DNA of 64,000 bases from an uncultured delta proteobacterium (GTDB lineage Bacteria; Myxococcota; Myxococcia; Myxococcales; Myxococcaceae). Numbering within the stretch: position 1 is the first letter of the stretch; each line of letters begins with the position of its first letter. The notes beneath the pieces were generated by a model. It did not search any database. It saw nothing but the letters and a program-made list of their open reading frames with translations, and was not told the DNA's origin. The DNA is taken from positions 352,001 through 416,000 of the forward strand of contig CAVYSY010000026.1 in NCBI GenBank assembly GCA_963771175.1, given 5' to 3'. The translations under genes and the position numbers were made by a program. Positions 176 through 43,932 of this stretch are shown here, piece after piece.

Positions 176-1155
176 CCGAGCACTACCCCCGGCTGCGTCG
201 TCTACTCCTCCCAGCAGGGGGAGACCACCTCGTCCAGCGGAAGTGGTTAGGCTCGTCGTGCACCTTCCGTTTGACCACTATGACCTCTCGGACGGAGTGA
301 ACCGTGCGCTCGATGTGTACCTCCGCGCTATTGGACAGGGACCGGAAATTCTTTCGGAGTGGTGCGACGTCTGGCGAATTCGACGCATTTCCGCTGGATG
401 AGTGCGGGTGGGAGTTCGTCCGGTCAGCGCTTTCGACACTCGCGGGGGACGCTTCCTCGACGACGTCAAAGACGAGCAATACGTCCATCGCCCGGTGAAG
501 AAACAGTTCACCGTGCGCTGGCTGTTGGGTGGGTCATCGGGCGTCGTGGCTATGGATTCTTCTACTGGGCCCGCCTGCCTGGCGTACTCCCGTGGAGGAA
601 AGGGTCACGCATCGGTGGCGCTTCTCCTGGCCCACGGAGTACCTCGAGGAGCACGGCCCCGGGACGAGTGAGGGGAGTTGCGCATGGAGCTGGCGTCAGT
701 CCTGCCCTTCTCCTCCGGCCACGCCGGCCTCGCCTTCTTATTCGCCCAACCCCTTCGTGCGCTTCCATGGAAAGGGATTCGCGAGGACGCCTTCCGGTAC
801 CCGGGGCTGGATGTGGCCCACGGCAGCACGATCCCTCGGGCCCCGCGTGGATGGCGTGCATTGGCTCAACTTCCTCGGCCAGCCAGTGCTGGGGGAGTTG
901 GGCGGCGCCGCGGGCCTGCGCACCCGGCTGCACTCCCCTGGAACCACCGTCCAGGAGCTGGAGGGCGAGCGGGTCGTGGTGACGCTGGGAGAGTGGCCGG
1001 AGGCTGGAGACCTGGCGCGAGGCCAGGACCTCCCCGCGTACCGCGAACTCGCACATGTGCTGGAGCCCTGGCTGTACCAGTGCCCCAGCTACGAAGCGTT
1101 CCACGGCACCACACACGAGGAAACCGTTCGCTGGTGGCGCCGCTTCCTCGATTGA
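172..1155 (+). CDS. DUF3396/TsiV-like type VI immunity protein (several frameshifts)
   Basis: Starts MTEHYPRLR; contains [32 protein letters not shown] and [15 protein letters not shown]; ends RWWRRFLD. Confidence 0.75.
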
Positions 1156-1165
1156 GTGCGGATGC

Positions 1166-3526
1166 TCAGCCCGGCATCAGGAAGCGCGCGATGACGCGCT
1201 TGAGGCCCACGCTCCGTCCGAACTCCACCGTCACCTTCGCGTTGGGGCCGTTTCCGTCCGTCGACACGATGCGCCCCATGCCGAACTGCTCGTGGCGCAC
1301 CGACATGCCGCGCACGTCTCCGCCCTCGCCGTCCATTCCGAGGCCTGCGAGTAGGAGCGGTCGATGCGCGGCCCGTCATCGTCCTCGAAGTGGCGCCGGC
1401 GCTGCACCATCGGAGATGCCCTCGAGGGCGGCGTCTCCAATCCTCTCCGCGAAGCCGAAGAGCGCCTGCGGCACCTCGCGCAGGAAGCGCGAGGGCGGGT
1501 TGTAGCGCAGCTCGCCGAAGAGGCGCGCGGCACTGCGCCAAGCGTGACGAACAGCCGCTTGCGCGCGCGCGTGAAGCCCACGTAGCAGAGCCGCCGCTCC
1601 TCGGCCATCTCCTCCCCGTCCGGGTCCTCCGCCGCCAGCGAGCGCGGCAGTGCGGGAAGACCCCGTCCTCCATGCCGGTGATGAACACCGCGTCGAACTC
1701 GAGCCCCTTCGCCGCGTGCAGCGTCATCAGCGCCACCCGGCCCTCGCCCACGTCCGCGTCCGCGTCGCCCACCAGCGCTGATCTGCTCCAGGAAGGCCTG
1801 CAGCGCGGGCACGTCCGCCGTAAGCGGCGAGGGTCCAGGCCCTCGTCCTCCGGCGCGCGCGGGCGCGCGTCCTCGCCCTCTTCGTCCCCGCCGAGGCCGC
1901 CGCCACGGCCGCGGCCGCGCGGTTCAGGTCGAACTCCTGCGCGGCGCCCAGGAACTCGCGCAGGTTCTCCGCGCGCGTCAGCGACTCGTCGGTGCCCTCG
2001 GCGATGAGCGCCTCCACCAGCGTGCGAGTCCTTGAGCATCTGGTCCACCGCGCTCGCCGCGTCCTGGGCCTCCTGCGCGAAGGCGTGCAGCGAGGACACC
2101 AGCCGCGTGGAAGCCGGTGAGCCGGCGCACCGCCGCCGAGTTGAGGCCGGTAATCCGCTCGGGCGCCGCGAGTCGCCTCGTAGAGGCTCACGCCCGCCTG
2201 GTTGGCCCAGTCCTCCAGCCGCTCCACCGTGGTGTCGCCGATGCCGCGCGCCGGCGTGTTGATGACGCGCAGCAGGTCCGCGTCCGAGCGCGGGTTCACC
2301 ATCAGGCGCAGGTAGGCCGCCGCGTCCCGGACCTCGGCCCGGTCGTAGAAGCTGCGCCCGCTCACCAGCGTGTAGGGCACGCGCGCCAGCCGCAGCGCCT
2401 CCTCCAGCACGCGGCTCTGCGCGTTCGTCCGGTAGAAGACCGCCATCCCCGAGTACTTGATGAAGCCCTCGCGCTGCAGCTCGTGGATGCGGCGCGCCAC
2501 CTCCTGGGCCTCGGCGCGCTCGTCGCGGTTCATCAGCAGCGTGAGGTTGCTCGCCCTTGGGCCGCTCGCTCCACAGCTTCTTCGCCATGCGCCGCGTGTT
2601 CGCGCGCGATGACCGCGTGCGCCGCGTCGAGGATGTTCTGGTCCGAGCGGTAGTTCTGCTCCAGCTTCACCACCCGCGCGCCCGGGTAGTGGTCCGGGAA
2701 GTGGAGGATGTTGTCCACGCTCGCGCCGCGCCAGCGGTAGATGGACTGGTCGTCGTCGCCCACCACCACCAGGTTGGCGACGCCGCTCCGGCGGAGCCAG
2801 CAGGCGCAGCAGCTCGTACTGCACGGGGTTGGTGTCCTGGAACTCGTCCACCAGGATGTGCTGGAAGCGCCGCCGGTAGTGGTCCAGCACGTCCGGGCGC
2901 TTGCGGAAGAGCCGCCACCAGCAGCAGCAGCAGGTCGCCGAAGTCCACCGCGTTCGCCGCGCGCAGCAGCCGCTGGTAGGCGCGGTAGGTCTTCTGCACC
3001 ACCCCGCCGCGCAGGTCGTCCACGTCCACCACCATGCTCGTCCGGGAGGCGGGCGGCGTTCTTCTCCTGGTCGATGCGGTGGAGGATCTCCCGCGGCTGC
3101 ATGACGGGGTCCATCGCGGACCTCGCGCATGGCGCGCTTGACGAGCTGGAGCTGGTCCCCGTCGTCGTAGATGACGAACGAGGGGGTGAGCCCCAGCAAC
3201 TCCGCTACCGACTCGTCCCGGAGGACGCGGCGAAGAATCATCGACGCCGAGGAGTGGAAGGTGCTCACCACCAGCTCGTGCGCCTGGAAGCCGAGGAGCT
3301 GGACGAGCCGCTCGCGCATCTCGCGCGCGGCCTTGTTGGTGAAGGTGACGGCGAGGATGCGCCACGGCGCGACGCCGCGCACCTGGACCAGGTGGGCCAT
3401 CCGGCGGGTGATGACGCGCGTCTTGCCGCTGCCCGCGCCGGACAGCACGAGGAGCGGGCCATCCCCATGGAGGACCGCTTCCCTCTGGGGCTCGTTCAGG
3501 TCTTTGAGGAGTTCGTCGGCGTTCAA
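1166..3526 (-). CDS. pcrA: ATP-dependent DNA helicase UvrD/PcrA (multiple apparent sequencing frameshifts)
   Basis: [63 protein letters not shown] and [13 protein letters not shown] are spread over several frames; TTG start at 3526. Confidence 0.92.
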
Positions 3527-3645
3527 GGCAGGGTGCTCTTCTAGAGGCAAACCCTGCTTGTAACGAGTTTCCGCCCATCTGGAAGGACGTTCAGCGGTGG
3601 GGGCCCCTCGCCTGCCCTGCTGGGGAGCATGTCTCCCCGAGCGGC

Positions 3646-15618: not shown

Positions 15619-15798
15619 GAGGGTCCGCGCTCCTTCGTGAGGGGGAGAAAGCAAGACCACCGTACGCGGCCACACGAGGGCGTTGGCCGGCATGCCCTCA
15701 TGCTTCCGTCATGGTTTCGTCATCTCCGCCGACCTGTCAGGAATGAGGGGCCGCCACGTCCCTTCGCGCAGAACGACTCGCGCCCAGCGGAGGGGCAC

Positions 15799-17567
15799 AT
15801 GACCACCCAGAACCAGACCACCCCCACGCTCCCCGAGGCCCAGCGCGGCCCGGCGGAGAAGCTCCTGGACCTCGTCCTCGGGGGCTCCGCGCACCTGTGG
15901 CACAACCGCCCGGGCCTGGACGTGAACGGCGTCTGGCACCCGGCCCAGGCGGCGAAGCCGGACCTCGTCCGCCGCGGCACCCCGGTGAAGCCCGGCCTCT
16001 TCGTGCCCGCCGCGGTGAAGCTCTACGGCCAGCTGCTGGACATCTACCGGCTCAACACGGACCTGATGGCGCACTTCGCCTCCTACGCGCTCACGCAGAC
16101 GGACTGGCGCGATCTCAAGGTGGCCACCTGCGCGCTGATGCTCGTGCAGAGCCACTCCGGGCAGCCCGTGCGCGAGGACGACGGCTCCATCGCGTTCCAC
16201 GACGACGACTTCCGCGCCATCGGCGAGGCCATGCTCCTCCACTACGAGCGCAAGTCCACGCGCATGCTCACGCCCAAGGCGGTGCTGCGGGTGGCCGAGC
16301 TGCTCGAGACGCCGGAGATCGCCCGCCTCAACCGCGAGGCCGGCTTCGGTGACCCCGCGTCCCGCAAGCCGCCGCTCGGCCGCTGGAAGCGCGTGGCGAC
16401 GAAGTGGCTGCGGCTGCGCGAGCAGAACCTGCCCATGCTCCAGGGCCTGGTGAAGGCCGGCTACAAGGAGACGCTCAAGAGGATCGCCCGCAAGGCCGGT
16501 TACAAGCCGGTGTCGCAGGCCTTCTTCGAGGTGCTCGGCTGGAAGCAGAAGCAGGCGGCCGCGGGCCACCGCTCGGTGGGCCTGGAGGGACTCAAGCTCG
16601 TCAAGCGGGAGCGCTTCGACGGGCTCTCGGAGGCGGAGATCTGCGAGTGGATCGAGCTGGAGCGCCTCTCCTACAAGGAGGTGGTGGGCCGGCTGCCCAA
16701 GGACCTGGGCCTGACGCCGGCCATCATGGCGGCGCTCCTGCCCTCGCTGTCGGACCGCGACTTGCGCATGCTGACGCCCACGCTCGAGGAGCTGGGGCTG
16801 ATGTCCGACCCCGCGATCCGCGCGCGCTGGGAGAAGGCGGTCGCAGACGGCGACCGACCAGCGCGCGCTCCACATCGCGAAGAACGTCCGCAGCCAGGAG
16901 CTGAAGGCGAAGCTGGAGGAGGCGAGCGACAACGCGGCGAAGGCGGCGGTGGCGGAGGCGACGGCCGAGACGGACGTGAGGGTGATGTTCCTCATCGACA
17001 AGTCGGGCTCCATGGAGGGCGCCATCGAGCAGTCCAAGGAGGCGCTGTCGCGCATCCTCGCCGGCTTCCCGCTGGAGAAGCTGCACATCGCGTCGTTCGA
17101 CACGATGGGCACGGTGCTGAAGCCCAAGGCGGCGAGCCGGGCGGCGGTGCAGCACATGCTCGCAGGGGATTCAGGCGTCGGGCGGCACGACGCACGCGGC
17201 CGGTGTGCATGCGCTGCACCGGGCGGGAGTGCGGGTGCCGGAGGAGGCGAAGCTCGTCGTCATCGTCGTGGGTGACGAGGCCGGCGAGGCGGGTGACCAG
17301 TTCGCCCGCGCCTTCCGCGAGTGCGGCTACAGCGTGGCCGCCATGGCGCTGCTGGTGAGCGTGGCCAGCACGCGGGGCAGCACCGTGCGCACGTGCGCGG
17401 CGCAGCTCCGGGTGCCGTTCAGCGAGGTGCAGGTGGACCAGTTCGAGGACCCGTACCAGGTCCCCCGCGTGCTCAAGGCGCTGATGGACGCGCCGACGGC
17501 GACCGGGGCCAGCCAGTCCGGCTGGGTCGAGCGGGTGATGCGCACGCCGCTGCTGAAGGTGGCGTGA
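15799..17567 (+). CDS. vWA domain protein with a large helical N-terminal region (possibly TROVE-like); frameshifts near 16850 and 17170
   Basis: GGAGG RBS; C-terminal vWA with MIDAS FLIDKSGSM and IVVGDE. Confidence 0.75.
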
Positions 17568-17583
17568 GAGAGGAGTGGGTGTC

Positions 17584-18575
17584 GTGGACTACCGGAAGTT
17601 CCTCGGGAAGGTGGAGTCGGCGGTGCTGCCCTACTTCGGCGGCGCCTCCGTCGACGCGGCCTCGCGGCGCCTCCGCGTGTCCACGCCGCCCGCTCCGGGC
17701 TGGTGGCGCTTCGACGTGCAGGGGCGCACCGCCACCGCGCGGGAGCCGGCCGAGCCGGAAGGGCTCGACGGGCTCCCGCTCATTCGTGGACATCTCTGGG
17801 GCTCGCGGTTGGTGCGCGAGGGCGCGGTGGCCGAGCCGGTGAAGCTCCTCCCCGAGGAGGAGCCGCCGCGCTTCTCGCCGCTGCGCGCCCGGCGCTGGCA
17901 TGACGGGACGCTCGTCTTCGAGGGGCTCGACTTCGAGGGCGAGGCCGAGGGCACCGCACGCCTCCTGTTGGAGGAAGGCCGGGCGCTCGCGGAGGTGAAG
18001 GCCGTGCCGGCGTCGCTGCGGGCGGCCTTCGGTTACGCGGTGCTGGAGGGTGCCTCGCGCGCGCTCGGCATCCGCTTCTCCCCGGTCGAGGTGCGTGGAC
18101 AGGTGCTGTCCGTGTCCGAGGGAGGCCGTCCCGCGGCCGAGGCCCGGCTGCGGGCCCTGGCCGCCGAGCGCGAGGCCCACGTGCGGGCAGTGGAGGCACG
18201 GCCACGGGCGCGTGGAGGTCCAGCGGCAGCGGGCGGTGGAGGAGGTCCGGCTGCAGGCGGAACTGGCGCGACTGCGGAGCCAGCCGCGTCACCTGCAGCA
18301 GCAGGCGCAGGGGGCCGTGCGGGTGGAGCGGGCGTTGGAGGCGGCGGGGGCGCGGCTGCTCGACACGCGGCGGCTGGGGAGCGAGCGGCTCGAGGTGACG
18401 TTCGGCTTCATGGGCGAGCGCTTCATCAGCATCGTCGAGGCGAGACACGCTGCAGGTGGTGGACGCGGGCATCTGCCTCGCGGGAGCGGACCGGGAGGTG
18501 ACGCTGGAGAGCCTGCCGTCGGTCATCCGCGAGGCCATCGAGGACGACGTGCTGGTCATCACCCGGCACGCGTGA
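17584..18575 (+). CDS. Hypothetical protein with a C-terminal DAGICL motif (candidate E2-like); frameshifts near 18200 and 18443
   Basis: GAGGAG RBS; reconstructed C-terminus is TLQVVDAGICLAGADREVTLESLPSVIREAIEDDVLVITRHA*. Confidence 0.65.
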
Positions 18576-18585
18576 GGGCCTTCCC

Positions 18586-19048
18586 ATGGACAAGCGCGAG
18601 GTCTGCCTGCTCATCGGCCGGGACGGGACGGTGCTGTGGAGCGATGCCTCGGACAGTCCCGTGCTGGCTGCCGGACTCGCGCGCACGCTGGGAGGCCATC
18701 TGGCGGCTGCGCGACGAGCTGGAGGAGATTGCTCACAGCCACCCGGTGGGACCGCTGGGCTTCAGCGCCGAGGACGAGACGACGATGGCGGCGCTCACCG
18801 AGGCGCTCGGACGGCCAGTGCGCTTCTCGGTGGTGGCGCCCGACGGCATGGTGGTGCGCGAGGACGGTCGAGACTTCATCGTCACCGAAGAGCCCGCCTG
18901 GGCCGGACACATGCGGGCCGACTCCGGAATGAGCTCCCTCGACCATCCGGCGGTAACCGCACCTCCTCTCCGCCCTCCAGAAGGTGACACTCGTCGGTTC
19001 GACGGAGACTTCTTCGAGGCGCATGAGCCGGTAGGATGCGGCGCGTGA
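18586..19048 (+). CDS. JAB/MPN+ (JAMM) metalloisopeptidase; frameshift near 18667
   Basis: N-terminal Glu (REVCLL) and an exact HxHx7SxxD motif: HSHPVGPLGFSAED. Confidence 0.8.
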
Positions 19049-19308
19049 GCGCGAACGAGCACGACGATGAGGGACGGACGGATCGCTGGCAGAGCCTCGT
19101 GACAGGGGCCTTCCTGCTCGAGGAGTCGCTGAAGGCAACCCCTCCCCCGAGTGACACACGGCCCCCCAGAGCGCTCGCGGTGAGCTACCTCGACAGCGTG
19201 CTGGAGGTGTTCCCCTCCAGCGTGGACCCGGTCGAGGACTTCGAGGGCTACGCCATCCGGCGGATGGCGCTCGCCCTGCGCCGGGCCCTGGAGGAGAGCG
19301 GACGCTGA
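19045..19308 (+). CDS. Small hypothetical protein coupled to the JAB gene
   Basis: GTG at 19045 overlaps the JAB TGA; acidic/helical, 87 aa. Confidence 0.55.
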   Translation: MSANEHDDEGRTDRWQSLVTGAFLLEESLKATPPPSDTRPPRALAVSYLDSVLEVFPSSVDPVEDFEGYAIRRMALALRRALEESGR

Positions 19309-28044: not shown

Positions 28045-28131
28045 GGGGACGTAGAGCGTTACGCGAAGACGCACCGGCCTGTAGAGCCGGAGCCTTCAAT
28101 GGCCCGCTGGGTTCAACTCCCAGCGTCCCCA
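28045..28131 (+). tRNA. tRNA-Tyr(GTA), atypical D-loop
   Basis: Acceptor GGGGACG/CGTCCCC; anticodon arm CCGGC-CTGTAGA-GCCGG; long variable arm; TTCAACT T-loop. Confidence 0.75.
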
Positions 28132-28150
28132 CTCCGCAGTGGAAGTACGG

Positions 28151-28168
28151 GTTCTCTGACAACTGAAT
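28151..28168 (+). promoter_or_regulatory. boxA-like antitermination element
   Basis: GTTCTCTGACAACTGAAT resembles the GTTCTTTGAAAACTGAAT motif of rrn leaders and spacers. Confidence 0.45.
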
Positions 28169-28211
28169 CGCAGTGGTGAAGCGCCGCCTGCCCTCAAGCG
28201 AGGCGGCACAC

Positions 28212-28282
28212 GCCTCCGTAGCTCACGGGTAGAGCATCCGCCTCTTAAGCGGACGGTGAGGGTTCGAGTCCCTCCGGAGGTA
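28212..28282 (+). tRNA. tRNA-Lys(CTT)
   Basis: TCCGC-CTCTTAA-GCGGA; acceptor GCCTCCG/CGGAGGT; GGTTCGAGTCC. Confidence 0.88.
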
Positions 28283-28289
28283 CTCATAC

Positions 28290-28363
28290 GCGGATGTCGT
28301 CCAGCGGCAGGACACCGGCCTCCCAAGTCGGAAACACGGGTTCGAATCCCGTCACCCGCTCCA
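28290..28363 (+). tRNA. tRNA-Gly(CCC), CCA encoded
   Basis: CCGGC-CTCCCAA-GTCGG; GGTTCGAATCC; ends TCCA. Confidence 0.88.
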
Positions 28364-28368
28364 CCTAT

Positions 28369-28439
28369 TCCGGGATCGTCCAGCGGCAGGACGGCGGGCT
28401 CTGACCCCGCAGACGCAGGTTCGAATCCTGCTCCCGGAG
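28369..28439 (+). tRNA. tRNA-Gln(CTG)
   Basis: GCGGG-CTCTGAC-CCCGC; acceptor TCCGGGA/TCCCGGA. Confidence 0.9.
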
Positions 28440-28462
28440 CTGTCGCAGCACAGGCAACACAT

Positions 28463-28534
28463 TCCACGGTAGCTCAATGGCAGAGCAGGCGGCTGTTAAC
28501 CGCAAGATTGGGGGTTCGAGTCCCTCCCGTGGAG
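28463..28534 (+). tRNA. tRNA-Asn(GTT)
   Basis: GCGG-CTGTTAA-CCGC; acceptor TCCACGG/CCGTGGA. Confidence 0.9.
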
Positions 28535-28539
28535 CAACT

Positions 28540-28615
28540 CGGGGTGTAGCTCAGTCTGGACGAGAGCGCGTGCTTGGGGTGCACGAGGTCGTCGGTTCGA
28601 ATCCGGCCACCCCGA
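28540..28615 (+). tRNA. tRNA-Pro(GGG)
   Basis: CGTGC-TTGGGGT-GCACG; acceptor CGGGGTG/CACCCCG. Confidence 0.9.
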
Positions 28616-28635
28616 CTCCGTTTCAACCGTTTCAT

Positions 28636-28709
28636 CTGGGTGTGGCTCAACTTGGTAGAGCGCGCGGTTCGGATCCGCGAGGTTGCAGGTTCAAATCCTG
28701 TCACCCAGA
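28636..28709 (+). tRNA. tRNA-Pro(CGG), A37
   Basis: CGCGG-TTCGGAT-CCGCG; acceptor CTGGGTG/CACCCAG. Confidence 0.88.
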
Positions 28710-28715
28710 CATTTC

Positions 28716-28789
28716 GCCTCCGTAGCTCAGGGGAACAGAGCGCACGGCTCCGGACCGTGAGGCCGCAGGTTCGAATCCTGCCGGGGGCA
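28716..28789 (+). tRNA. tRNA-Arg(CCG)
   Basis: CACGG-CTCCGGA-CCGTG; GGTTCGAATCC. Confidence 0.88.
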
Positions 28790-28798
28790 CAGCTTCGA

Positions 28799-28870
28799 TG
28801 CGGAGTGGGACCGGACGTCCCACCGGGTCTCATACGCCTGGGTCGCAGGGTTCGACTCCCTGCTCCGCAA
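28799..28870 (+). tRNA. tRNA-Met/fMet-like (CAT), short atypical D arm
   Basis: CGGGT-CTCATAC-GCCTG; acceptor TGCGGAG/CTCCGCA. Confidence 0.7.
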
Positions 28871-28882
28871 CTTCTTCATCAT

Positions 28883-28955
28883 GCCGTCCTGGCGTAGGTG
28901 GTCCGCGCGCCCGTCTGAAGAGCGGGAGGACCGGGTTCGATTCCTGGGGACGGCA
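28883..28955 (+). tRNA. tRNA-Phe(GAA), G37
   Basis: CCCGT-CTGAAGA-GCGGG; acceptor GCCGTCC/GGACGGC. Confidence 0.85.
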
Positions 28956-28963
28956 CTCGTTTT

Positions 28964-29037
28964 GCTCCTGTAGCTCAGCTGGTAGCAGCACCGGTTTCGT
29001 AAACCGGGGGTCGTCGGTTCGAACCCGACCGGGAGCA
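28964..29037 (+). tRNA. tRNA-Thr(CGT)
   Basis: CCGGT-TTCGTAA-ACCGG; acceptor GCTCCTG/CGGGAGC. Confidence 0.88.
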
Positions 29038-29053
29038 CTGTTTCACGCAGCAT

Positions 29054-29125
29054 GTTGGCTGAAGGCAAAGGGTGAGCCACCGGTCGTGAATCCGGTTCCA
29101 GAGGGTTCGAGTCCCTCCAGCCGAC
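29054..29125 (+). tRNA. tRNA-His(GTG)-like, irregular anticodon loop
   Basis: 8-bp acceptor GTTGGCTG/CAGCCGAC (G-1:C73); ACCGG-TCGTGAAT-CCGGT, possibly with a one-base sequencing deletion. Confidence 0.65.
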
Positions 29126-29132
29126 CTTCTTC

Positions 29133-29205
29133 GCACGCCGAGCCAGCTGGAGACGGCGTTGGTCCCACACACCAATTTCGCCGGGTTCGATCCCCGGGGC
29201 GTGCA
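29133..29205 (+). tRNA. tRNA-Val(CAC), C33
   Basis: TTGGT-CCCACAC-ACCAA; acceptor GCACGCC/GGCGTGC. Confidence 0.72.
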
Positions 29206-29226
29206 CTGCAACAGACTCCCCAACGC

Positions 29227-29301
29227 GTCCGCGTGGCCCAATCGGGAGAGGCGGCTGGCTCAAACCCAGCTCACGTGCGAGTTCGACTCTCGCCGCGGAC
29301 A
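29227..29301 (+). tRNA. tRNA-Leu(CAA) with short variable region
   Basis: GCTGG-CTCAAAC-CCAGC; acceptor GTCCGCG/CGCGGAC; variable region only TCACGT. Confidence 0.78.
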
Positions 29302-29327: not shown

Positions 29328-29870
29328 ATGGAGACACTGGTCCTCAACCAGTCCTATGAGCCCGTGGCCCGGATCTCCTGGCAGCGAGCGGTGATGCTGC
29401 TGTGGCAGGGGAAGGTCGAGGTGGTCGAGGAGTACGACGACCGCCTCGTCCGCTCCGTCACCGTCGAGATCCGGATGCCCTCCGTCATCCGCTTCCTGCG
29501 CGGCGCGCGTCGGGGCGGGCGCGGCGTGAAGTTCAGCCGCGACAACGTCTACATGCGCGATGGCTGCCGGTGCCAGTACTGCGGCCGGAAGGTGTCGCGC
29601 CCCGAGGCCACGTACGACCACGTCGTGCCCCGGGCCCAGGGCGGCCGTACCACCTGGGAGAACATCGTGATCGCCTGCGTGCCCTGCAACCAGAAGAAGG
29701 GTGGGCGCACGCCGGTGCAGGCGGGGATGGCGCTGCTCTCCGCTCCCGTGAAGCCTCGCAAGCTCACGGGTTCGGTGCAGCTCACCTTCGCCCACGAGAA
29801 GGGCATGCCCGTCTCGTGGAAGAAGTTCCTCCGTGACGTCGCGTACTGGCACACGGAGCTGGAGGAGTGA
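29328..29870 (+). CDS. HNH endonuclease (McrA-like) inside the tRNA array
   Basis: LVLNQSYEP, RDGCRCQYCG and TYDHVVPRAQGGRTTWENIVIACVPCNQKKG; AAGGA RBS. Confidence 0.93.
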   Translation: METLVLNQSYEPVARISWQRAVMLLWQGKVEVVEEYDDRLVRSVTVEIRMPSVIRFLRGARRGGRGVKFSRDNVYMRDGCRCQYCGRKVSRPEATYDHVVPRAQGGRTTWENIVIACVPCNQKKGGRTPVQAGMALLSAPVKPRKLTGSVQLTFAHEKGMPVSWKKFLRDVAYWHTELEE

Positions 29871-30012: not shown

Positions 30013-30099
30013 GGAAGGTCGACGCCGGAGGCCCGGCGGCCCGCCTCGAAAGCGGTGCGGGCGCATGACGCGCTCGGGGTTCGAGTCCCTTGCCTTCTG
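30013..30099 (+). tRNA. tRNA-Ser(CGA), divergent
   Basis: CCGC-CTCGAAA-GCGG; long variable arm; acceptor GGAAGGT/GCCTTCT; G73. Confidence 0.7.
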
Positions 30100-30112
30100 T
30101 TCCGTCTCTTCT

Positions 30113-31347: not shown

Positions 31348-34181
31348 ATGGCCACGAGGAAGAGCGAGGACAACGAGCGTCTCATCGACCGCGATCTCAC
31401 CGCGCTGGCGCGAGACGGGAAGCTGACGGCCGCGCACGGCGTGGACGGTCCGGTGACGGAAGTGCTGGGCCTGCTCACGCGAGGGGGCAAGCACCCGCTG
31501 CTCTCCGGGGAGCCCGGCGTGGGCAAGTCCGCCGTGGTGCAGGAGGTGGCGCGCCGCATCACCGAGGGCCGCGTGGACGCGGAGCTGGCCAACGCGCGCA
31601 TGGTGGAGGTGTCCGTCGCCAACATCCTGGCGCGCAGCACCCAGCGCCAGGCGGCGGAGAGCTTCGAGGAGTTGCTGGCGCTGGCTGAGCCGGCACCCCT
31701 GCCCCATCGTCTACATCCGGGACCTGCCCGCGGTCATCGGCGGGCCCCTGGCCCCCGTGGCCTTCCGCGCCCTGCGCACCGGGGGCATCCGCTTCATCTT
31801 CGAGACCGAGCCCAAGCGCGTGCAGGAGTTGCTGCGCGCGGACGAGGCCTTCGCCGAGCGGCTCCACCTCGTGCCCGTGCAACGAGCCGCCCGCCGAGCG
31901 GGCCCGCTGGATATTGGGCCGCGTGGCCGAGGAGCTGGAGCGCGAGCTGCACCTGCCCATCGACCCGGCGGCGTGCGACCTGACGCTGCGGCTGGCCTCC
32001 AAGTTCCTCCTGGCGCAGCGGCTGCCGCGCAAGGCCATCGAGCTGCTCAAGGAGACGGCCGCGGAGGCCGCCAGCGCGGCCAAGGACCGCGTGGGCCCCG
32101 AGGACGTCCTCACCCGCTTCTGCGCCACCACCCGACTGCCGCGCTTCGTGGTGGACGACGCGATGCCGCTGGATCTGGAGGAGACGGAGCGCTTCTTCGG
32201 AGAGCGGCTGCTGGGCCAGACGGACGCGGTGCAGGCCGTGCTGCGCTCGGTGGCGCTGCTCAAGGCGGGGCTCAACGACCCGCGCCGGCCGCTCGGCGTG
32301 TTCCTCTTCGCCGGTCCCACCGGCGTGGGCAAGACGCAGCTCGCCAAGCTGCTGGCCGAGTACCTCTTCGGCTCGCAGGACCGGCTCGTGCGCCTCAACA
32401 TGGCGGACTTCCCCAACGACGGCGACGAGAGCGTCCCCTTCGGGGCCTCGTGGGCTCCCGCGCTGGAGACGAAGCGCGGCGAGCTGACGCGCGCTGCTCG
32501 AGGGCAAGGTGTTCACCGTGCTGCTGCTCGACGAGTTCGAGAAGGCCGCGCGCAGCGTGCACGACCGCTTCCTCCAGCTCTTCGACGAGGGCACCTTCGT
32601 CAACGGCGCGGGCGAGACGGTGCTCCTGCAACAACACCGTCATCGTGGCCACGTCCAACGTGGGCGCCGAGGTGTACCGCGAGCCGGCCATCGGCTTCAC
32701 GGGCTCGCGCCGTCCCGAGGAGCTGCATCACCGAGGTGGACCGGCGCATCGCCGAGGCCTTCCGCCCCGAGTTCCTCAACCGCTTCGACGCCATCTGCCA
32801 CTTCCAGCCGCTGACGAAGGTGGAGATCCGCAAGCATCGCCCAGCGCGAGGTGGGCCGGGTGCTGGAGCGCGAGGGCATCCGGGCACGTGCGCTGGACGT
32901 GGAGGTGACACCGGAGGTGGTGGACCTGCTGGTGGAGCGCGGCTACTCGCCGCAGTTCGGCGCGCGCTACCTGCAGCGGGAAATCGAGAAGACGCTCACC
33001 GCGGCGCTGGCGGTGGAGATCGCCCGCCGGCCACTGCCCCCGGGAACACCGGTGCGGGTGGAGACCCGACCGGGCGGCAAGGTGGTGGCGGTGGCCGAGC
33101 TCGCGCCGCGCCCGCGCGAGGAGACGGCGCAGCTCGCGCTGCCCACGGAGAAGTCGGTGTCCGCGGTGAAGCGGCGGCTGGACAAGAAGTCGCTGCTCAA
33201 CGAGATGGACCGGCTGGTGGGCCGCGCGCGGGCGCTGTCGGTGTCGGCGAACCGGCCGAGGCTGGAGGAGCGACGCGCGCAGTTGCTGGCGGAGACACAG
33301 GCGCCCAACCTCTGGGACGACCCGCAGCGCGCGGCCTCGACGCTGCGGGCCTTCCGGACGGTGGAGGCTCAACTCAACGAGCTGGACCGGATGGAGGAGC
33401 GGACCAGTTCGCGCGGCGGCTGGTGCGCGAGGCGAGGGGCGAGGCGCAGCTCGCGTCGGCGGCGAAGCAGGTGGAGGAGGTGGCGCGCGAGGTGCAGATG
33501 GCCGAGGCGCTGGACGCGGCGGGAGCGACGGACCACGTCGACGACGCGCTGGTGGACATCTGCGCGAGCGAGACGGGCGAGGGACAAGACACCTGGGTGC
33601 AGGAGCTGGCGACCATGTACCTGGGCTGGGCGGAGCGGCGCGGCTACGAGGCCATCGCGGTGGCGGAGGCGGAGGAGCCCTTCCGGGTGGTGGTGCGAAT
33701 CGCCGGACCGGGAGCCTACGGCTACCTGGCGGGCGAGGCGGGCCTGCACCGGCGCATCGACGAGGAGAAGCGCCAGCGTGCCTACGTGCGGGTGCACCGG
33801 GGAGGACCGGTGCAGGAGGCGGAGAGCCTGGACGTGGAGGGCCGCGACGTGAGGCGGCACGAGGGGACGTTCCTCGCGCGGGTGAAGACGGAAGTGACGG
33901 TGCGGGACGAGACCACCGGCCGGATGATGACGCTGGCGGGCGCGGGCGAGCTGGACGAGCTGAAGGACATCGCCTCGCGAGTGGTGAAGGGCCAGGGCGG
34001 CAGCCACACGGCGGACGAGGCCCGGCGCTACTACCTGGGCCGGGGTGCTCGGGTGGAGGACCCGCGCACCGGCGCCGGCACTCCGCGCGTGAAGGACGTG
34101 CTGCGCGGCGAGCTGGACGTCTTCATCGCCGCGTGGATCTCCCGTCCGCCCCCCGAGGGCCCCACCACCATCGCGAGCTGA
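31348..34181 (+). CDS. ClpA/B-type AAA+ ATPase fused to a release factor 2-like C-terminal region (several frameshifts)
   Basis: GEPGVGKS, LPRKAIELL, GQTDAV, FAGPTGVGKT, LLLDEFEKA, FRPEFLNRFD and FGARYLQR; then NLWDDPQRA, MYLGWAERRGY, GAYGYLAGEAGLHR and VEDPRTG...VLRGELDVFI. Confidence 0.85.
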
Positions 34182-35463: not shown

Positions 35464-37724
35464 TCAGGGCTTCGCTGGCTCGGAGGGGACGGGTGGCACG
35501 CCCGGAGAGGCACCGGGTGACATCAGCGCGTCGCACATGCTGCCCGCCATCCATTGACGCTGGCAGGCCTCGCGGACAAGCGGCTCGCGGAACTGCCAGA
35601 GCACGACGAAGAGGATGAGGAGCGAGATGCCGATCCAGACCCCCGGCGAACGTGGCTCCGCCTCCTCGTCCTCGCGCACCGTCACGAGGACGGAGCGCAG
35701 CACATCCGTGTGATCCACGGTGGCGTTCTTCGGCAGCCTCGGCCGACGGGTGATGAGGGCCCCCAGGTCTCGCGTGAGCCCCAACCGGTCATTGAGCGCC
35801 CAGCCCGAGCCCTCCAACAGCAGCGCCAGGTTGCGCCTGCGCAGCTTGAGCCACCCCAGCAGGCCCGAGGGCACCATGACCGCGGTGACGATGATGATCA
35901 CCGCCGTGATGACATCGAAGAGCGTGAGCGACTTCACCTGATTCATGATGAAGGCGAGCGACGAGCCGACGGCCGCGAACGTGATACCCACCGCCGCGAT
36001 GAGGCCCCCCGGCCCTCCCGCTGGCTGTGGCGCCGCGGGAGCCCCCGGGGCTGGCGCGGCCGGAGCGGGTGCCGGCACGGCCGGGGGAACGAGCCCGGGG
36101 GCCCGCGCATAGCCCGTCTCCAATTGCGCATCGAGCGTCTTCTCCCCGGCGGCCGCCATCCCCTCGATCTTCGAGGAGATGAACTGGCCGATCCGCTCGA
36201 ACGGCATCGTCATCGACTCCCACAAGGAGACGGGCTGGCGGACCACCTGGGTCACCACGGCGTCGAACTCGCGGCCCTCCATGTCATAGAACACGCCGCG
36301 CTTGCCCACCGCGAGCTCGCGGCTCCGACCGCGCGTGGCGGGCACGGCCACCTCGTAGTGCTCGCCCCCTTCCTTCGCCATCACCTGCACGTAGAGGGTG
36401 CAGGTGGTCCCCTGGCTCGTCAGCGCGAAGTGCGCGGCGTGGTTCGTCACCAGCACCGACAGCCTGTACCGGCGCCCCTCGAGGATGAGCGTCCCCTTCT
36501 CCACCAGCGCGCGCCGCTTCGTCTGGTAGAGGTCCGGCATGCTGATGAAGTTGTTGGCGAATGTCAGCAGCCAGCGCTGGTAGAGGATCAACCGCTCCAG
36601 CTCGTCCACCGCGTCCAGCTTGTCCTTCAGCGCCAGGTCCGCCCGGCACGCCGCTTCGAGGGCATCGAGCTCCGCGTCCGTGACGTCCGACAGCGCGTCC
36701 ACCCAGGTGCGCAAGGGGCTCGCGTCGATCCGCGCCTGCCACGCCAGGATGGCCTCGGCCTTCGCGGACAGCTCGCGCCAGGCGGTGTCCGCGAGCGTCG
36801 CCATGTCCCCGGTAAGGGGCACCGCCACGTCCCGCCGGAAGGCCTCGAGCTTCTCGAACGCTTGGCCCCGGTACAGCCGGGACCAGCGGAGCGCTCCCCG
36901 GGCTCGGGAGGCGCCACGGGCAACTCCGACACCACCCGCGAGAGCGCCTGGGTGTCTCCGAGCGCGCCCTGCACCCGGCCCGCCTCCAGCTTGAGGCTCG
37001 TAACGGCCTCGGGCTGGGCCGCGACCAGCCGGCACTGCAGGAAATACGTGTCGAGCAGCGGTCGGATCTCCTGGATGCGCTGGGCCTGCTCCACGCTCCG
37101 CTCGCCCCACACGAGCACCGCCGCCCGTCCCGCGAGGTGTGCCAGCAGCGCGGTCCGCTCCTCCCGGAAGCGCTGGACCATGGGCAGGTCCACGCCCGCC
37201 TGCCCCGAGCGGTTCTTCACCTCGGGGAAGCTGGCCATGAGCTTCTCCGCCAGGGGGCGCAGCGGCACGGGCAGGAGCACCGGGGCAACGATGCCGTCCC
37301 CGTTCTGCCCCGCCGCGAGCAGCGCCTTCTCGCTGGCCCGCACCTGCTCCAGCGAGATGCGCGTCCGGTCCTCCACCTTCAGCGTCTCCAGCAGGATGCC
37401 GGCCACCTCCCGCAGCTTCACGCCCTCGTCCGAGAGCGCGTCCAGCTCGAGCACGTCACTCGCCGCGTCCGCGCCCCGGTACGACTTCAGCAGCTTCGCC
37501 GCGTGCTCGACGGCGGCCCGCACCTCGGTGACGCGGATGCGTCCGTTCTTGTCCGTGTCGACGAAGGCGAGGAACCGCGGGTCGCAGTTGAGCCCCTCGA
37601 CGGGGCAGGCCGTGGCGAGCCACTGCGTCTCCGGGATGCGGATGGCCTCCACGAGCACTTCGAAGGAGGGAATGGAGACCTGGAGCGAGCCTCCGTAGCG
37701 GCGGTAGATAAGGGGGCGCGTCAT
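35464..37724 (-). CDS. Large hypothetical membrane protein with an EF-hand-like loop (frameshift near 36900)
   Basis: WLATACP and DTDKNGRIRVTE; C-terminal TM helices with LEGSGWALN. Confidence 0.7.
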
Positions 37725-41533: not shown

Positions 41534-43932
41534 ATGCGTGTCGAGCCACTACGGACACTCCTCTGTCTCCTCCTGCTGTGGGGCTGCGCGGAGGTGGAGC
41601 CCCGCGACAACCCGCCCCGTCAACTGGAGGAGGCGGCAACGGTCCCCTCCCGCTTCACGGACACGACGCTCGTCGAGAACATCGACAGTGTCACCACCAT
41701 GGCCCTCGCGCCGGACGGGCGCATCTTCGTCTGCGAGCAGGCGGGGAAGCTGCGGATCATCGAGAACGGGAAGCTACTGCCCGAGCCATTCCTCTCGGTG
41801 GAGACGAACGCGGACGGAGAGCGGGGGCTGCTCGGCGTGGCGTTCGATCCCGACTTCCCGCGCCAGCCCTACGTGTACGTCTACTACACGGCCACTTCGC
41901 CCTCTCCGCACAACCGCGTCAGCCGCTTCACCGCGAGCGGCAACCGGGCCGTGGCCGGCAGCGAGCGCATCCTGCTCGACCTGGAGCAGGCTGGGGGCCA
42001 CCAACCACAACGGAGGCGCCCTCCACTTCGGGGCCGACGGCAGGCTGTACGTGGCCGTGGGGGACAACTCGAAATCGGAGAACGCGCAGAAGCTCGACAC
42101 GCTGATGGGCAAGCTGCTGCGGCTGGAGAAGGACGGCACCATCCCCTCGGACAACCCGTTCTCCACGCGCACCACGGGCGTCTACCGCGCCATCTGGGCG
42201 CTCGGCCTGCGCAACCCCTTCAGCTTCGCCGTGCAGCCGGGCACCGGCCGCCTCTTCATCAACGACGTGGGGGCGAACAAGTGGGAGGAGATCAACGAGG
42301 GCGTCGCCGGAGCCAACTACGGCTGGCCGGACACCGAGGGCCCCACGAGCGACTCGCGCTACCGCGCGCCGCTGTTCTCCTACTCGCATGGCTCGGGCAG
42401 CAGCCATGGCTGCGCCATCACCGCGGGCACCTTCTACAACCCGCCCCGCGCCCAGTTCCCCTCGGAGTACGTGGGGCTCTACTTCTTCTCCGACTACTGC
42501 AACGGGTGGATCCGCACGTACAACCCGAAGGATGGCACCGTCAGCGTGTTCGCCACGGGCCTCGATGCGCCGGTGGACCTCGACGTGGGACCGGACGGCA
42601 GCCTCTACTACCTGGACCGCGGGGACGACTCGGTGCACCGCATCCGCTACGCGGCGACGAACGAGGCGCCCGCGCTCGCGCGCCAGCCCGAGAGCCAGAC
42701 GGTGAGACCCGGCCAGTCGGTCACCTTCACGGTGGGCGCCACCGGGACGCCGACCCTGCGCTACCAGTGGCAGCGGGATGGCAAGGACCTGGCGGGGCAG
42801 ACGTCCGCGAGCCTCACGTTGACGGCGGTGGGACTGACGGACTCGGGGGCGCGCTTCCGGGTCCGGGTGTCCAACGACTACGGCTCGGTGGTGAGCAACG
42901 AGGCCGTCCTCACCGTGCTGAGCGGCACCGCCCCCGTCGCCACCATCACCTCGCCAGTGGAGGGGACGCGCTACAGCGCCGGAGAGCCTCATCTCCATCG
43001 CGGGAGCAGGCACGGACGCGGAGGACGGCACGCTGCCGGCGAGCGCCTTCACCTGGCGCGTGGACTTCCACCATGGCGACCACCTGCACCCCTTCGTGCC
43101 GACCACGCGCGGGGAGAAGAGCGGGAAGTTCATCGTGCCGGACCGGGGCGAGACGTCCGCCAACGTGTGGTACCGCATCCACCTGCAGGTGACGGACTCC
43201 GGCGGGGCCACCCACTCGGTGTACCGGGACGTGCGCCCCCGGACGGTGCAGCTCGGGGTGGACACCCAGCCGGCGGGGCTCCAGGTGACGCTCGATGGCC
43301 AGCCCCAGGCCACGCCACTGGGGGTGGAGAGCGTGGTGGGCATGGTGCGCACGCTCGGGGTGGTGTCCCCCCAGGTGAAGGACGGGAAGACGTACGTCTT
43401 CGACCACTGGTCCGACGGCGGGAGCGCGACGCATGAGGTCCCCACGCCCGCGGCGGCCGCCCGCTACACGGCGGTGTTCCGTGCGGGGGAGGAGCCCACT
43501 CCTGGCAACGGCCTGCGCGCGGAGTACTTCGACTCCCTCGACTTCACCCAGCTCAAGCTGGAGCGTGTGGACCCCACCGTGGACTTCCGCTGGGAGGACA
43601 CCGCTCCCGACCCCCGCATGCGCAAGGACACCTTCTCGGTGCGTTGGACCGGAAGCGTGGTGCCCCGGTACTCGGAGACCTACACCTTCTACACGCAGTC
43701 CAACGATGGGGTGCGGCTCTGGGTGGACGGGAAGCTCCTCATCGACGACTGGAACATCCACGCCACCACCGAGAAACGTGGCACCGTCACCCTGCAGGCG
43801 GGCCGCGCCCACTCCTTGCGGCTGGAGTTCTTCGAGAAAACGGGTCTGGCCATCATGCGGCTGCACTGGTCGAGCCCCAGTCAGCGCAAGGAGATCATCC
43901 CGACGGAGCGGCTCCGACCGACGCCTCCCTAG
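41534..43932 (+). CDS. PQQ-dependent sugar dehydrogenase (GSDH) with Ig-like and PA14 domains (frameshifts near 41990 and 42990)
   Basis: GERGLLG, HNGG, GLRNPF and GANYGWP; PA14 motifs FSVRWTG and SNDGVRLWVDG. Confidence 0.88.

Follow-up and report, generated by a model that had tools for sequence, protein, structure and literature searches.

Bacteria deal with stalled ribosomes by way of tmRNA, ArfA/ArfB, RqcH, MutS2/SmrB and PrfH-RtcB, and we know of none among these routes in which an unfoldase carries its own release-factor mimic. The domains by which Clp proteins select their substrates are usually found at the N-terminal entry face of the ring, and the ClpB-type disaggregases are without a ClpP loop. 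ABCE1, the ATPase that figures with Dom34/Pelota in the comparison below, is not an AAA+ protein. The text of a survey of release-factor evolution (PMC6514570) presents Dom34 as a catalytically dead protein of release-factor fold that is paired with an ATPase in its action on stalled ribosomes, and Vms1 as a protein that interacts with the AAA+ protein Cdc48. A disarmed relative of RF2 has been described in plants (PMC5897788): PrfB3 is said there to have lost both SPF and GGQ, to take no part in translation termination and to bind the 3' UTR of petB.

The gene examined here lies in a 64,000-nucleotide stretch of DNA from a member of the Myxococcaceae (the window, meaning the whole stretch that was analysed) and belongs to a conserved, uncharacterised family of ~940-aa proteins, here called Clp-RF, in which a ClpC/ClpA-type double-ring AAA+ unfoldase is joined to a disarmed C-terminal RF2. 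A sequence-only reading of the window had named two separate genes in homologs as an outcome that would refute it; the fusion is a single gene in the homologs, 92 of 100 of which are single proteins of 925-1073 aa, and most of 80 loci fetched gave one continuous match over residues ~1-940. The fusion occurs in Myxococcota, Chloroflexota, Acidobacteriota and Planctomycetota, and in some members of the family HEAT or TPR arrays are found in addition at the N-terminus. In precomputed Pfam lists, PCRF is present in 99/100 homologs and RF-1 (PF00472) in 0/100. The homologs are currently labelled only as "AAA family ATPase", "ClpA/ClpC" or "PCRF domain-containing protein". Full-text literature searches returned no description of a Clp-RF fusion, and the searched text of the survey PMC6514570 uses "Clp" 0 times and "AAA+" only with Cdc48; domain architectures relevant to this negative may be given in its supplementary lists.

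The Clp-RF gene of the window spans 31348-34181 on the + strand, from an ATG at 31348 (MATRKSEDNERLIDR...) to a stop codon at 34179-34181, and both ends agree with those of the homologs. The sequence-only reading had taken this span for one fusion protein; the architecture proved to be real, but the gene is not in one frame, and seven breaks had been silently read through. The coding sequence is not a single ORF but eight pieces distributed across three frames, and the breaks consist of six single-base insertions (near 31680, 31881, 32490, 32622, 32725 and 32835) and one single-base deletion (at 33406). Their placement is agreed upon by GC3 phase, by frameshift-aware alignment to the homolog P0001 and by DNA alignment with seven relatives; tblastn alone fused out-of-frame stretches of the gene into one 66%-identity HSP, and frameshift-aware alignment was preferred to it. 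The ORFs listed over the region include 31348..31983 (211 aa) and 31914..34181 (755 aa), the middle of the latter being mostly out of frame relative to the Clp-RF coding sequence. After frame correction the protein is identical to an intact 943-aa homolog at 882/941 positions and has zero in-frame stops. All motifs quoted in the sequence-only reading were located in the window on the + strand, and are listed here with the eight pieces, the frame of each piece being given as its remainder mod 3:

31348..31680, + strand: piece 1, remainder 1, with the N-terminus and the D1 Walker A
31507-31530, + strand: D1 Walker A, GEPGVGKS
31630-31650, + strand: D1 pore-loop position in piece 1, TQR vs KYR in ClpC
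31682..31879, + strand: piece 2, remainder 2, with the D1 Walker B; follows a 1-base insertion near 31680/31681
31706-31723, + strand: D1 degenerate Walker B, IVYIRD
31881..32489, + strand: piece 3, remainder 0, with the D1 lid (AAA_lid_9) and the D2 Walker A; follows an insertion near 31880/31881
32313-32336, + strand: D2 Walker A, GPTGVGKT
32439-32459, + strand: D2 pore-loop region in piece 3, FGASWAP
32491..32622, + strand: piece 4, remainder 1, with the D2 Walker B; follows a 1-base insertion near 32490
32521-32544, + strand: D2 Walker B, LLLDEFEK
32624..32725, + strand: piece 5, remainder 2, with sensor-1 and the ClpP-docking-type loop; follows a 1-base insertion near 32622
32648-32659, + strand: sensor-1 in piece 5, ATSN
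32687-32698, + strand: ClpP-docking-type loop in piece 5, AIGF
32727..32834, + strand: piece 6, remainder 0; follows a 1-base insertion near 32725
32760-32789, + strand: D2 arginine-finger region in piece 6, FRPEFLNRFD
32836..33405, + strand: piece 7, remainder 1, with ClpB_D2-small, the linker and the start of RF2-like domain 1; follows an insertion at 32835
32959-32973, + strand: sensor-2 GAR in the ClpB_D2-small domain, piece 7
33040-33099, + strand: beta-hairpin linker in piece 7
33307-33333, + strand: RF2-like motif NLWDDPQRA
33408..34181, + strand: piece 8, remainder 0, after the 1-base deletion at 33406; carries what is left of the RF2-like module (domains 1-4), up to and including the stop codon
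33594-33647, + strand: RF2-like motif WVQELATMYLGWAERRGY
33711-33755, + strand: RF2-like motif GAYGYLAGEAGLHRR
33852-33875, + strand: RRHEGTFL, in the region where GGQ is expected
34023-34037, + strand: RRYYL, which opens the conserved stretch RRY...VEDPRTG...VLRGELDVFI of piece 8
34053-34073, + strand: VEDPRTG
34098-34127, + strand: VLRGELDVFI

Pfam searches with pieces of the window matched AAA, AAA_lid_9, AAA_2 and ClpB_D2-small (E 4.7e-13), and this order, with the two AAA+ modules in tandem and a D2-small domain behind them, is that of the class I Clp/Hsp100 proteins. The best Foldseek matches of the motor are ClpC, ClpC1, ClpB and ClpA (E down to 7.6e-38), with ClpC and ClpC1 ranked first. 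A double AAA+ protein of Clp type, with a degenerate first and an intact second Walker B, was what the sequence-only reading had proposed, and Pfam, Foldseek and motif counts over 76 full-length representatives bear it out. A catalytic Walker B is accordingly present in one ring only. D1 keeps its Walker A and has lost the Walker B glutamate: IVYIRD aligns to ILFIDE of ClpC (phmmer), and only 2/76 representatives have E at the catalytic position. The D1 pore-loop TQR aligns to KYR (phmmer), and the pore-loop tyrosine is missing in this clade. D2, on the other hand, retains all of the motor motifs (Walker A, Walker B, sensor-1 and sensor-2), its Walker B having D in 72/76 and E in 73/76 representatives. 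There is no Clp_N Pfam match in Clp-RF, residue 13 of the query aligning to residue 166 of ClpC, and ClpC residues 1-165 and ~402-449 are without a counterpart in the query (phmmer), which corresponds to the lack of a Clp N-domain and of an M-domain. The NCBIfam equivalog cut-offs were not reached, either for ClpB, the best partial match (277.5 bits vs 1232.1), or for ClpA (275.4 vs 993.15). A hydrophobic-Gly-Phe loop occupies the position at which ClpC and ClpA dock on ClpP; SIGF of the query aligns there to AGF of Staphylococcus aureus ClpC and LGF of Mycobacterium tuberculosis ClpC1 (phmmer), and among the 76 full-length representatives the G is kept in 72 and the F in 69, while the first residue is hydrophobic in 67. 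The conservation of this ClpP-docking-type loop points to proteolysis rather than to pure remodelling. A complex prediction that paired the D2 module (A2 residues 280-580) with two CLPP1_MYXXD chains (Swiss-Prot), run without controls, scored 0.29 against a mark of 0.32 and speaks neither for nor against docking.

The motor is connected by a linker of ~20 residues, modelled with low confidence, to the last ~335 aa, which fold as all four RF2 domains (AF2 model: pLDDT 89.7, pTM 0.86). A complete RF2-like module of ~330 aa had been claimed from the letters of this stretch, and the claim held in Pfam, phmmer, the AF2 fold and Foldseek: PCRF matched the tail with E 8.7e-14, a window piece aligned to residues 119-203 and 322-360 of E. 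coli RF2 (E 3.7e-12), and all 41 Foldseek matches listed for the tail model (ranks 1-50, with gaps) were RF2, RF1 or mitochondrial release factors, over ~320-390 columns for whole-factor chains and ~240-250 for shorter ones. The structural overlay that had been suggested places the tail model in the closed form, with TM 0.69/0.65 to free RF2 (1gqe), as against ~0.5 for RF2 in its pre-accommodated state and ~0.40 for RF2 accommodated on the ribosome. The profile check that had likewise been suggested found PCRF and AAA_2, while the RF-1 domain, which bears GGQ, had no Pfam match in the tail even at E<=1, and the NCBIfam prfB cut-off was not reached (88.2 bits vs 370). The predicted loss of both SPF and GGQ extends to the whole set of representatives, with 0/76 having either at its functional position: the sole GGQ (P0183) sits in another loop than the catalytic one, and the sole SPF (P0170) lies ~80 residues beyond the anticodon loop. 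The loop following GLHRR is shortened (IDEEKRQRAYVRV) and without SPF. Alpha7, a much longer helix in RF2, has ~13 residues in the tail model. Altogether, the loops that bear SPF (with the His that follows it) and GGQ, the switch loop, the alpha5 tip and the long alpha7 are lost or unconserved. Only core positions are invariant in a 49-sequence alignment, including E/G/H of E-x-G-x-H-R, R-x-Y, D/T of D-x-R-T-G and one Trp, and the four-domain shape, with the W-D-D-P motif of domain 1, persists across several phyla even where identity to the reference sequence has fallen to 20-31%. An Atlas search with the RF-like module gave best scores of 0.88-0.89, under the 0.9 line and to be taken only as a lead to PrfB3.

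The genetic context of the Clp-RF gene includes the following:

28045..29301, + strand: array of 13 tRNA genes, upstream of the Clp-RF gene on the same strand
29328..29870, + strand: HNH endonuclease gene, between the tRNA array and the Clp-RF gene

The sequence-only reading had placed the array ~1.1 kb upstream, a distance that does not hold for the tRNAs detected by ARAGORN, the last of which ends at 29301, 2,047 bp from the gene. A tRNA-Ser-like element that ARAGORN missed lies at ~30022-30108, ~1.2 kb upstream of the gene. Arrays of at least six tRNAs occur at 13/18 scanned loci of close Myxococcaceae relatives vs 0/22 more distant loci, and the association of the array with Clp-RF is limited to the close relatives. 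By tblastn with 17 window neighbours, the HNH gene was found upstream in 21/80 related loci and a ThiF gene in 16, all of them in the close clade. When ORFs within 5 kb were clustered over 80 loci, no operon partner conserved across clades emerged and the neighbours showed only clade-level synteny; the second-largest neighbour cluster is a mix of upstream ORFs and ORFs antisense to the Clp-RF gene. No ArfA- or BrfA-like partner was seen adjoining the gene. Between 29200 and 34600 there are 0 sigma-70-like sites and two terminator-like sites, which are no excess over shuffles and one of which is a tRNA T-arm. Rfam matched only tRNAs over the window, 10 of them at the gathering threshold. The Pfam scan of stop-free window segments took in 50/103, covering 1-31208, plus the Clp-RF gene itself.

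The reading that we favour, to which we would grant slightly less than an even chance, is that Clp-RF is an unfoldase coupled to ClpP, with its disarmed RF2 as the tether to ribosomes, and that the indels in the window copy of the gene are record errors. The protein would form a hexamer with D2 as the driver and might, judging from the loop motif, dock on ClpP through the hydrophobic-Gly-Phe loop. Six flexibly tethered RF2-like arms would bring it to ribosomes, either at the A site or at the factor-binding site, where they would neither read a codon nor release a peptide, and a ribosome-bound polypeptide might then be pulled out and degraded, the candidates being stalled products, trapped factors and ribosomal proteins. 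Tethering to the ribosome is made doubtful by the loss or lack of conservation of every RF2 element that has a known ribosomal job. Counted against it as well are the closed form of the tail model, the example of PrfB3 as a disarmed RF2 that left the ribosome for another job, and the C-terminal position of the RF-like module next to the ClpP face, since selecting domains are usually at the opposite, N-terminal face. The missing cross-clade operon partner counts against the proposal too.

Some of these same observations would be expected if the RF2 fold had been repurposed away from the ribosome, which we consider unlikely; it would then serve as an adaptor that binds RNA, tRNA or protein, or have a part in regulating or assembling the unfoldase. 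The loss of all codon-reading and catalytic loops, the invariance of core positions alone in the alignment and the closed tail model are consistent with such a change; PrfB3, described as having become a stabiliser that binds an mRNA 3' UTR (PMC5897788), sets a precedent, and in those members that have N-terminal HEAT/TPR arrays it could be these arrays that select the substrates. The retention of the whole four-domain shape over phyla nevertheless goes beyond the needs of a simple binding surface. The sequence-only reading had instead pictured an RF mimic that docks in the A site and brings an ATP-driven remodeler to stalled ribosomes; if independent of ClpP, such a protein would use ATP hydrolysis to split or remodel them with no proteolysis, much as Dom34 does with ABCE1. 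The architecture that fits the ClpP-coupled reading fits this one as well, the best partial NCBIfam match is to ClpB, and Dom34, a catalytically inactive release-factor paralog in the text of PMC6514570, works with an ATPase. We regard it as quite unlikely, given that G and F are retained at the ClpP-loop position in 69-72/76 members, that there is no M-domain for coupling to Hsp70 and that Foldseek ranks ClpC and ClpC1 first.

The other matter to be weighed is the broken frame, and here the most likely origin of the seven indels is error in the sequence record rather than biology. None of seven Archangium/Cystobacter relatives shares any of them in the DNA alignment. The frame-corrected gene has dN/dS of 0.12-0.19 vs 0.11-0.13 between intact relatives, with the minimum (0.07-0.15) falling in the broken stretch. 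The UvrD/PcrA gene at 1100-3620 on the - strand has 17 frameshift events, 13 of them insertions and 4/17 deletions, yet is identical to A. violaceum UvrD at 677/777 positions (87%), and therefore sequence error is the likely cause. Two more neighbouring genes have one indel each relative to relatives, the event at 36897 being a deletion, and 31/57 same-strand frame switches in the window are without a nearby stop codon. Against record error stands that the Clp-RF indels lie outside homopolymers and are strongly clustered. Their absence from homopolymer runs, unusual for the commonest sequencing errors, and their restriction to the window copy are what might be seen if the frameshifts were genuine and the gene of this strain a recently inactivated pseudogene. 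This is nonetheless improbable: once the frame is corrected, no stop codon, deletion or non-synonymous excess is left, dN/dS equals that of intact orthologs, the helicase has kept its identity through events of the same kind, and with several other genes hit, one technical cause acting over the whole window is a better fit than recent pseudogenisation of many genes independently. We give practically no credence to the idea that the cell decodes the +1 shifts, be it by programmed frameshifting as in prfB or by four-base decoding by tRNAs of the array. True, 6/7 Clp-RF events are +1, all six insertions can be written as a G-ending codon plus an extra C, and many C34 tRNAs are in the neighbouring array; but the deletions (one in the Clp-RF gene, those in UvrD and that at 36897) would be unreadable by a +1 mechanism, no word or phase rule is common to the 13 UvrD insertion contexts, the extra bases are absent from all seven relatives, five of them with tRNA arrays, and the anticodons of the array are ordinary (ARAGORN). 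Four-base or programmed +1 decoding was rejected on the grounds that deletions also occur and that the insertion contexts are heterogeneous. With record error as the preferred reading, the many frame errors would lead gene callers to split or miss such genes.

The architecture of Clp-RF suggests an as yet unknown way of policing ribosomes. The combination of a ClpC-like motor, a ClpP-docking-type loop and a disarmed RF2 is a candidate for a new link from translation surveillance to regulated proteolysis, and Clp-RF would be the second natural case, after plant PrfB3, in which the RF2 fold has been retained for a role other than termination. A bolder proposal, which we think somewhat unlikely, is that the family represents an unrecognised bacterial ribosome-associated protease, a ClpP-coupled AAA+ motor that uses its dead RF2 as an A-site probe for empty or blocked A sites and extracts and destroys what is stuck there, as a one-polypeptide counterpart of Dom34-ABCE1 and Vms1-Cdc48, and that in Myxococcaceae it may form a translation-stress island with the variable tRNA array.

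Among known systems, ClpC, ClpC1 and ClpA are the best matches in both sequence and fold, and Clp-RF is like them in its two AAA+ modules, D2-small domain, intact D2 motifs and ClpP-type loop. It differs from them in being without an N-domain and M-domain and in the ~335-aa RF2-like module appended to it, in having R-D instead of D-E in the D1 Walker B and, as a clade, no D1 pore-loop Tyr, and in scoring 275-277 bits vs NCBIfam equivalog cut-offs of 993-1232. Its tail has four domains in the same order as RF2 (prfB) and has the motifs WDDP, MYxxWA, GxGAxGxLxxExGxHR, RxY, DxRTG and VLxGxLDxF in common with it; unlike RF2, it is without the SPF and GGQ loops, its alpha7 is short, its alpha5 tip is unconserved and it has no RF-1 Pfam match. 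In ArfA-RF2 and BrfA-RF2, RF2 acts on ribosomes without a stop codon, and the pre-accommodated, compact RF2 of the rescue complexes (5mdw, TM 0.49) is nearer to the tail model than is accommodated RF2; unlike the tail of Clp-RF, the RF2 of these systems has GGQ and is catalytically active, and a small protein recruits it. Chloroplast PrfB3 has, like the tail, lost both SPF and GGQ, and is among the nearest Atlas feature-space clusters (0.89, a lead only). It differs in being standalone, eukaryotic, bound to an mRNA 3' UTR and not fused to an ATPase. Dom34/Pelota-ABCE1 and Vms1-Cdc48, in contrast to Clp-RF, are built on the unrelated aeRF1 fold and on separate polypeptides; by analogy only, their logic of a release-factor-fold protein working with an ATPase is like the one that we propose for Clp-RF.

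Homologs of the Clp-RF protein, in which a Clp-type unfoldase with two AAA+ modules (D1 and D2) is joined to a C-terminal module resembling release factor 2 (RF2), were sought with the RF-like part as query and proteins of 415-1322 aa allowed. The search returned 100 matches, 92 of them 925-1073 aa long; the remaining eight comprise records marked partial, proteins on short contigs and others of unusual form (P0100 has 1143 aa). In their source records the matches are called "AAA family ATPase", "ClpA/ClpC" or "PCRF domain-containing protein", and the precomputed Pfam lists assign PCRF (PF03462) to 99 of the 100 and RF-1 (PF00472) to none. A scan of one genome per species (80 loci kept of 458 confirmed stretches) gave a single continuous match over residues ~1-940 in most of the 80 loci, and together with the homolog lengths this bears out the fusion proposed in the sequence-only reading and shows it to be a single conserved gene. 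Contig ends cut four loci (L029, L041, L059 and L074), and at two others, L072 (Planctomycetota) and L079 (Bdellovibrionota), only the AAA+ part was found, inside long contigs, with no RF-like match within 10 kb. Members of the family occur, across the 80 loci, in Myxococcaceae/Archangiaceae, Polyangia, Bradymonadales, Acidobacteriota, Chloroflexota and Planctomycetota. Against 1.84 billion representatives, a profile built on the RF-like module matched 358 proteins at E<=1e-30; 75 of the best 150 of these are at least 880 aa long, and proteins that are as long as RF2 and bear GGQ enter the list only from about E 1e-42 downward. Some members reach 1120-1404 aa, and N-terminal HEAT and TPR repeats were found in three and four, respectively, of 12 scanned:

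P0180, P0226, P0230: HEAT arrays ahead of D1, RF2-like module still C-terminal
P0193, P0206, P0225, P0238: TPR arrays ahead of D1, RF2-like module still C-terminal

The window has a G+C content of 70%. Of the loci fetched, those closest to it come from Archangium and Cystobacter genomes, which share its gene order and are 80-92% identical to it in nucleotide sequence across the longer alignment blocks. Rather than forming one open reading frame, 31348-34181 (+) is divided by the ORF listing into five overlapping ORFs:

31348..31983, +, ORF
31757..32908, +, ORF
31914..34181, +, ORF
32509..32814, +, ORF
32851..33852, +, ORF

Four independent analyses (third-position G+C phase, a codon-position HMM, frameshift-aware alignment to the nearest intact homolog, P0001, and DNA alignment with seven Archangium/Cystobacter relatives, L001-L007) agree on eight coding pieces, separated by these changes:

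near 31680, 31881, 32490, 32622, 32725 and 32835, +, six single-base insertions
33406, +, one single-base deletion

None of the seven relatives shares any of these indels. After frame correction, the gene has no internal stop and is identical to P0001 at 882 of 941 positions; the motifs quoted in the sequence-only reading were all recovered at their places in the window. In the DNA alignment, the Cystobacter fuscus NCWS copy (L005:10001-12813) shows a separate 1-base gap close to the column of the insertion at 31881, and that record may contain indel errors too.

The frame breaks are very probably errors in the sequence record, because dN/dS resembles that between intact relatives, other genes are affected and the indels are mixed without a common context. 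For the corrected gene against five relatives dN/dS is 0.12-0.19, compared with 0.11-0.13 between intact relatives, and the lowest values (0.07-0.15) belong to the stretch that holds six of the seven indels. Other affected genes are as follows:

about 1100-3620, -, UvrD/PcrA-type helicase gene, 17 frame corrections (13 single-base insertions, 4 deletions) against the Archangium violaceum protein P0254
35476-37904, -, gene with a 1-base deletion at 36897, compared with relatives
41991-43929, +, gene with a 1-base insertion at 42985, compared with relatives

The corrected UvrD/PcrA gene is identical to P0254 at 677 of 777 positions, with Pfam domain pieces in order across frames, and of the 57 same-strand frame switches counted throughout the window, 31 lack an upstream-frame stop codon within 60 nt. 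The indels of the Clp-RF gene lie outside homopolymers and are strongly clustered, both of which count against a simple error model; a real, recent pseudogene is an unlikely explanation. Recoding by the cell deserves almost no weight: insertions and deletions both occur in the Clp-RF and UvrD/PcrA genes and no word is common to their contexts, which excludes programmed +1 or four-base decoding. A further cluster of frame switches, at 15763-19299 (+), was followed with the HMM alone (frames 1,2,0,1,2,0,1,2,1) and might mix gene boundaries with frameshifts; five switches there have no nearby stop codon, and one piece is a weak vWA match.

Upstream of the Clp-RF gene lie the following features:

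28045-29301, +, 13 tRNA genes (ARAGORN; Rfam at gathering supports 10), many having C as the first anticodon base
29328-29870, +, HNH endonuclease gene (Pfam E 1.8e-15), between the array and the next element
about 30022-30108, +, tRNA-Ser(CGA)-like element, aligning with tRNA-Ser genes located after the HNH gene in L001, L008, L013 and L016
30270-30854, +, 194-aa ORF, hydrophobic at its N-terminus, with a CNDCH (CxxCH, haem-c-type) motif, without a Pfam match, present in 7 related loci

The HNH gene is kept at the same place in 21 of the 80 related loci, a position suggesting that the array may have a mobile origin. The tRNA-Ser-like element escaped both ARAGORN and Rfam at its gathering threshold, possibly owing to sequence errors. 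Among 18 close-clade loci scanned, 13 carry an array of 6-25 tRNAs at the same site, two have one or two tRNAs and three have none; since arrays were found only in this clade and in none of 22 more distant loci, the link to the Clp-RF gene is one of clade-level synteny. It could be functional, and the array is not required by the family. No other neighbour conserved across clades was found. In some relatives (L001-L020), the anticodon of tRNA-Trp and tRNA-Cys genes comes unusually early (positions 29-31), a sign that these tRNAs may be atypical. The "tmRNA*" that ARAGORN places at L018:8145-8648 overlaps several array tRNA genes and is almost certainly a false call. Elsewhere in the window, 835-1152 (+) is a fragment that matches only positions 163-271 of the Pfam profile (E 2.9e-29) for TsiV, the type VI immunity protein against VRR-NUC effectors.

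Pfam finds AAA, AAA_lid_9, AAA_2 and ClpB_D2-small on the window pieces, and the AF2 model of full-length P0001 (92-row alignment; pLDDT 85.2, pTM 0.54, residues 584-602 of low confidence) has ClpC, ClpC1, ClpB and ClpA as its best PDB matches. When aligned by phmmer to ClpC of S. aureus and ClpC1 of M. tuberculosis, the query begins at ClpC residue ~166 and therefore has no N-domain. Nothing in it corresponds to the M-domain region, ClpC residues ~402-449, and the D1 Walker B ILFIDE and pore loop KYR of ClpC are replaced by IVYIRD and TQR. Among 76 full-length representatives, the D1 catalytic position is E in only two; the pore loop K-Y-(L/I)-G-E is often kept in distant members and absent from the Myxococcaceae form. 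D2 has Walker A GPTGVGKT in 69, Walker B D in 72 and E in 73, sensor-1 TSN or TTN in 70 and sensor-2 GAR in 71 of the 76.

The last window piece aligns with residues 119-203 (E 3.7e-12) and 322-360 of E. coli RF2; by sequence, it cannot be aligned with the intervening part of RF2, which holds SPF (the stop-codon-reading tripeptide) and GGQ (the catalytic loop). The NCBIfam prfB profile is covered at positions 7-192, with 88 bits against a cut-off of 370. The module, modelled with AF2 from the L001 residues and a 49-row alignment that covers all clades (pLDDT 89.7, pTM 0.86), comprises, in order, the four-helix domain 1, the domain-2 sheet, a beta-beta-beta-alpha unit at the place of domain 3, and domain 4. 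Class I release factors make up all 41 Foldseek PDB matches listed (ranks 1-50, with gaps), and the model overlays on free, closed RF2 (1gqe) with TM 0.69/0.65, compared with 0.49-0.51 for pre-accommodated RF2 (5mdw, 6ost) and about 0.40 for accommodated RF2, so that the RF2 likeness of the C-terminus was upheld. Aligned family members have a shortened loop, without SPF, after G-x-H-R; about 4 residues connect the first two domain-3 strands, at the position of the GGQ loop of RF2, and the helix that follows is about 13 residues long. The alpha5 tip is unconserved; one Trp, G-x-G...L..E.G.H, R-x-Y, D..T and one further Gly are invariant in the 49 sequences.

Domain order, motif states, fold, conservation and single-gene status of the family are matters of observation. 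From motif states, D1 would be a nucleotide-binding assembly ring, D2 the motor and ClpP the partner. The protein would assemble as a hexamer and would, on balance, dock on ClpP; its RF2-like arms might, more tentatively, target it to ribosomes, where a ribosome-bound polypeptide would be extracted and degraded. The next rival after the one considered below is the original proposal of a ClpP-independent remodeler. The query S-I-G-F lines up with A-G-F of ClpC and L-G-F of ClpC1, which we take to be ClpP-docking loops, and a loop of this type is widely kept (G in 72, F in 69 and a preceding L/F/I/V/M in 67 of the 76). The main rival is a repurposing of the RF2 fold away from the ribosome. The absence of SPF and GGQ noted from the sequence proved correct, neither occurring at its functional position in any of the 76 (an incidental GGQ in P0183 and SPF in P0170 lie elsewhere), and plant PrfB3, a chloroplast RF2 relative that has lost SPF and GGQ, binds the petB 3' UTR, according to PMC5897788.

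No description of the Clp-RF fusion was found in the literature searched, including passages of the RF-evolution survey PMC6514570. The protein belongs to neither the RF2 nor the ClpA/ClpB equivalog family, because on testing it lacks defining features of each; it is an unfoldase like ClpC/ClpA that carries, in the same chain, an RF2-fold domain without precedent.
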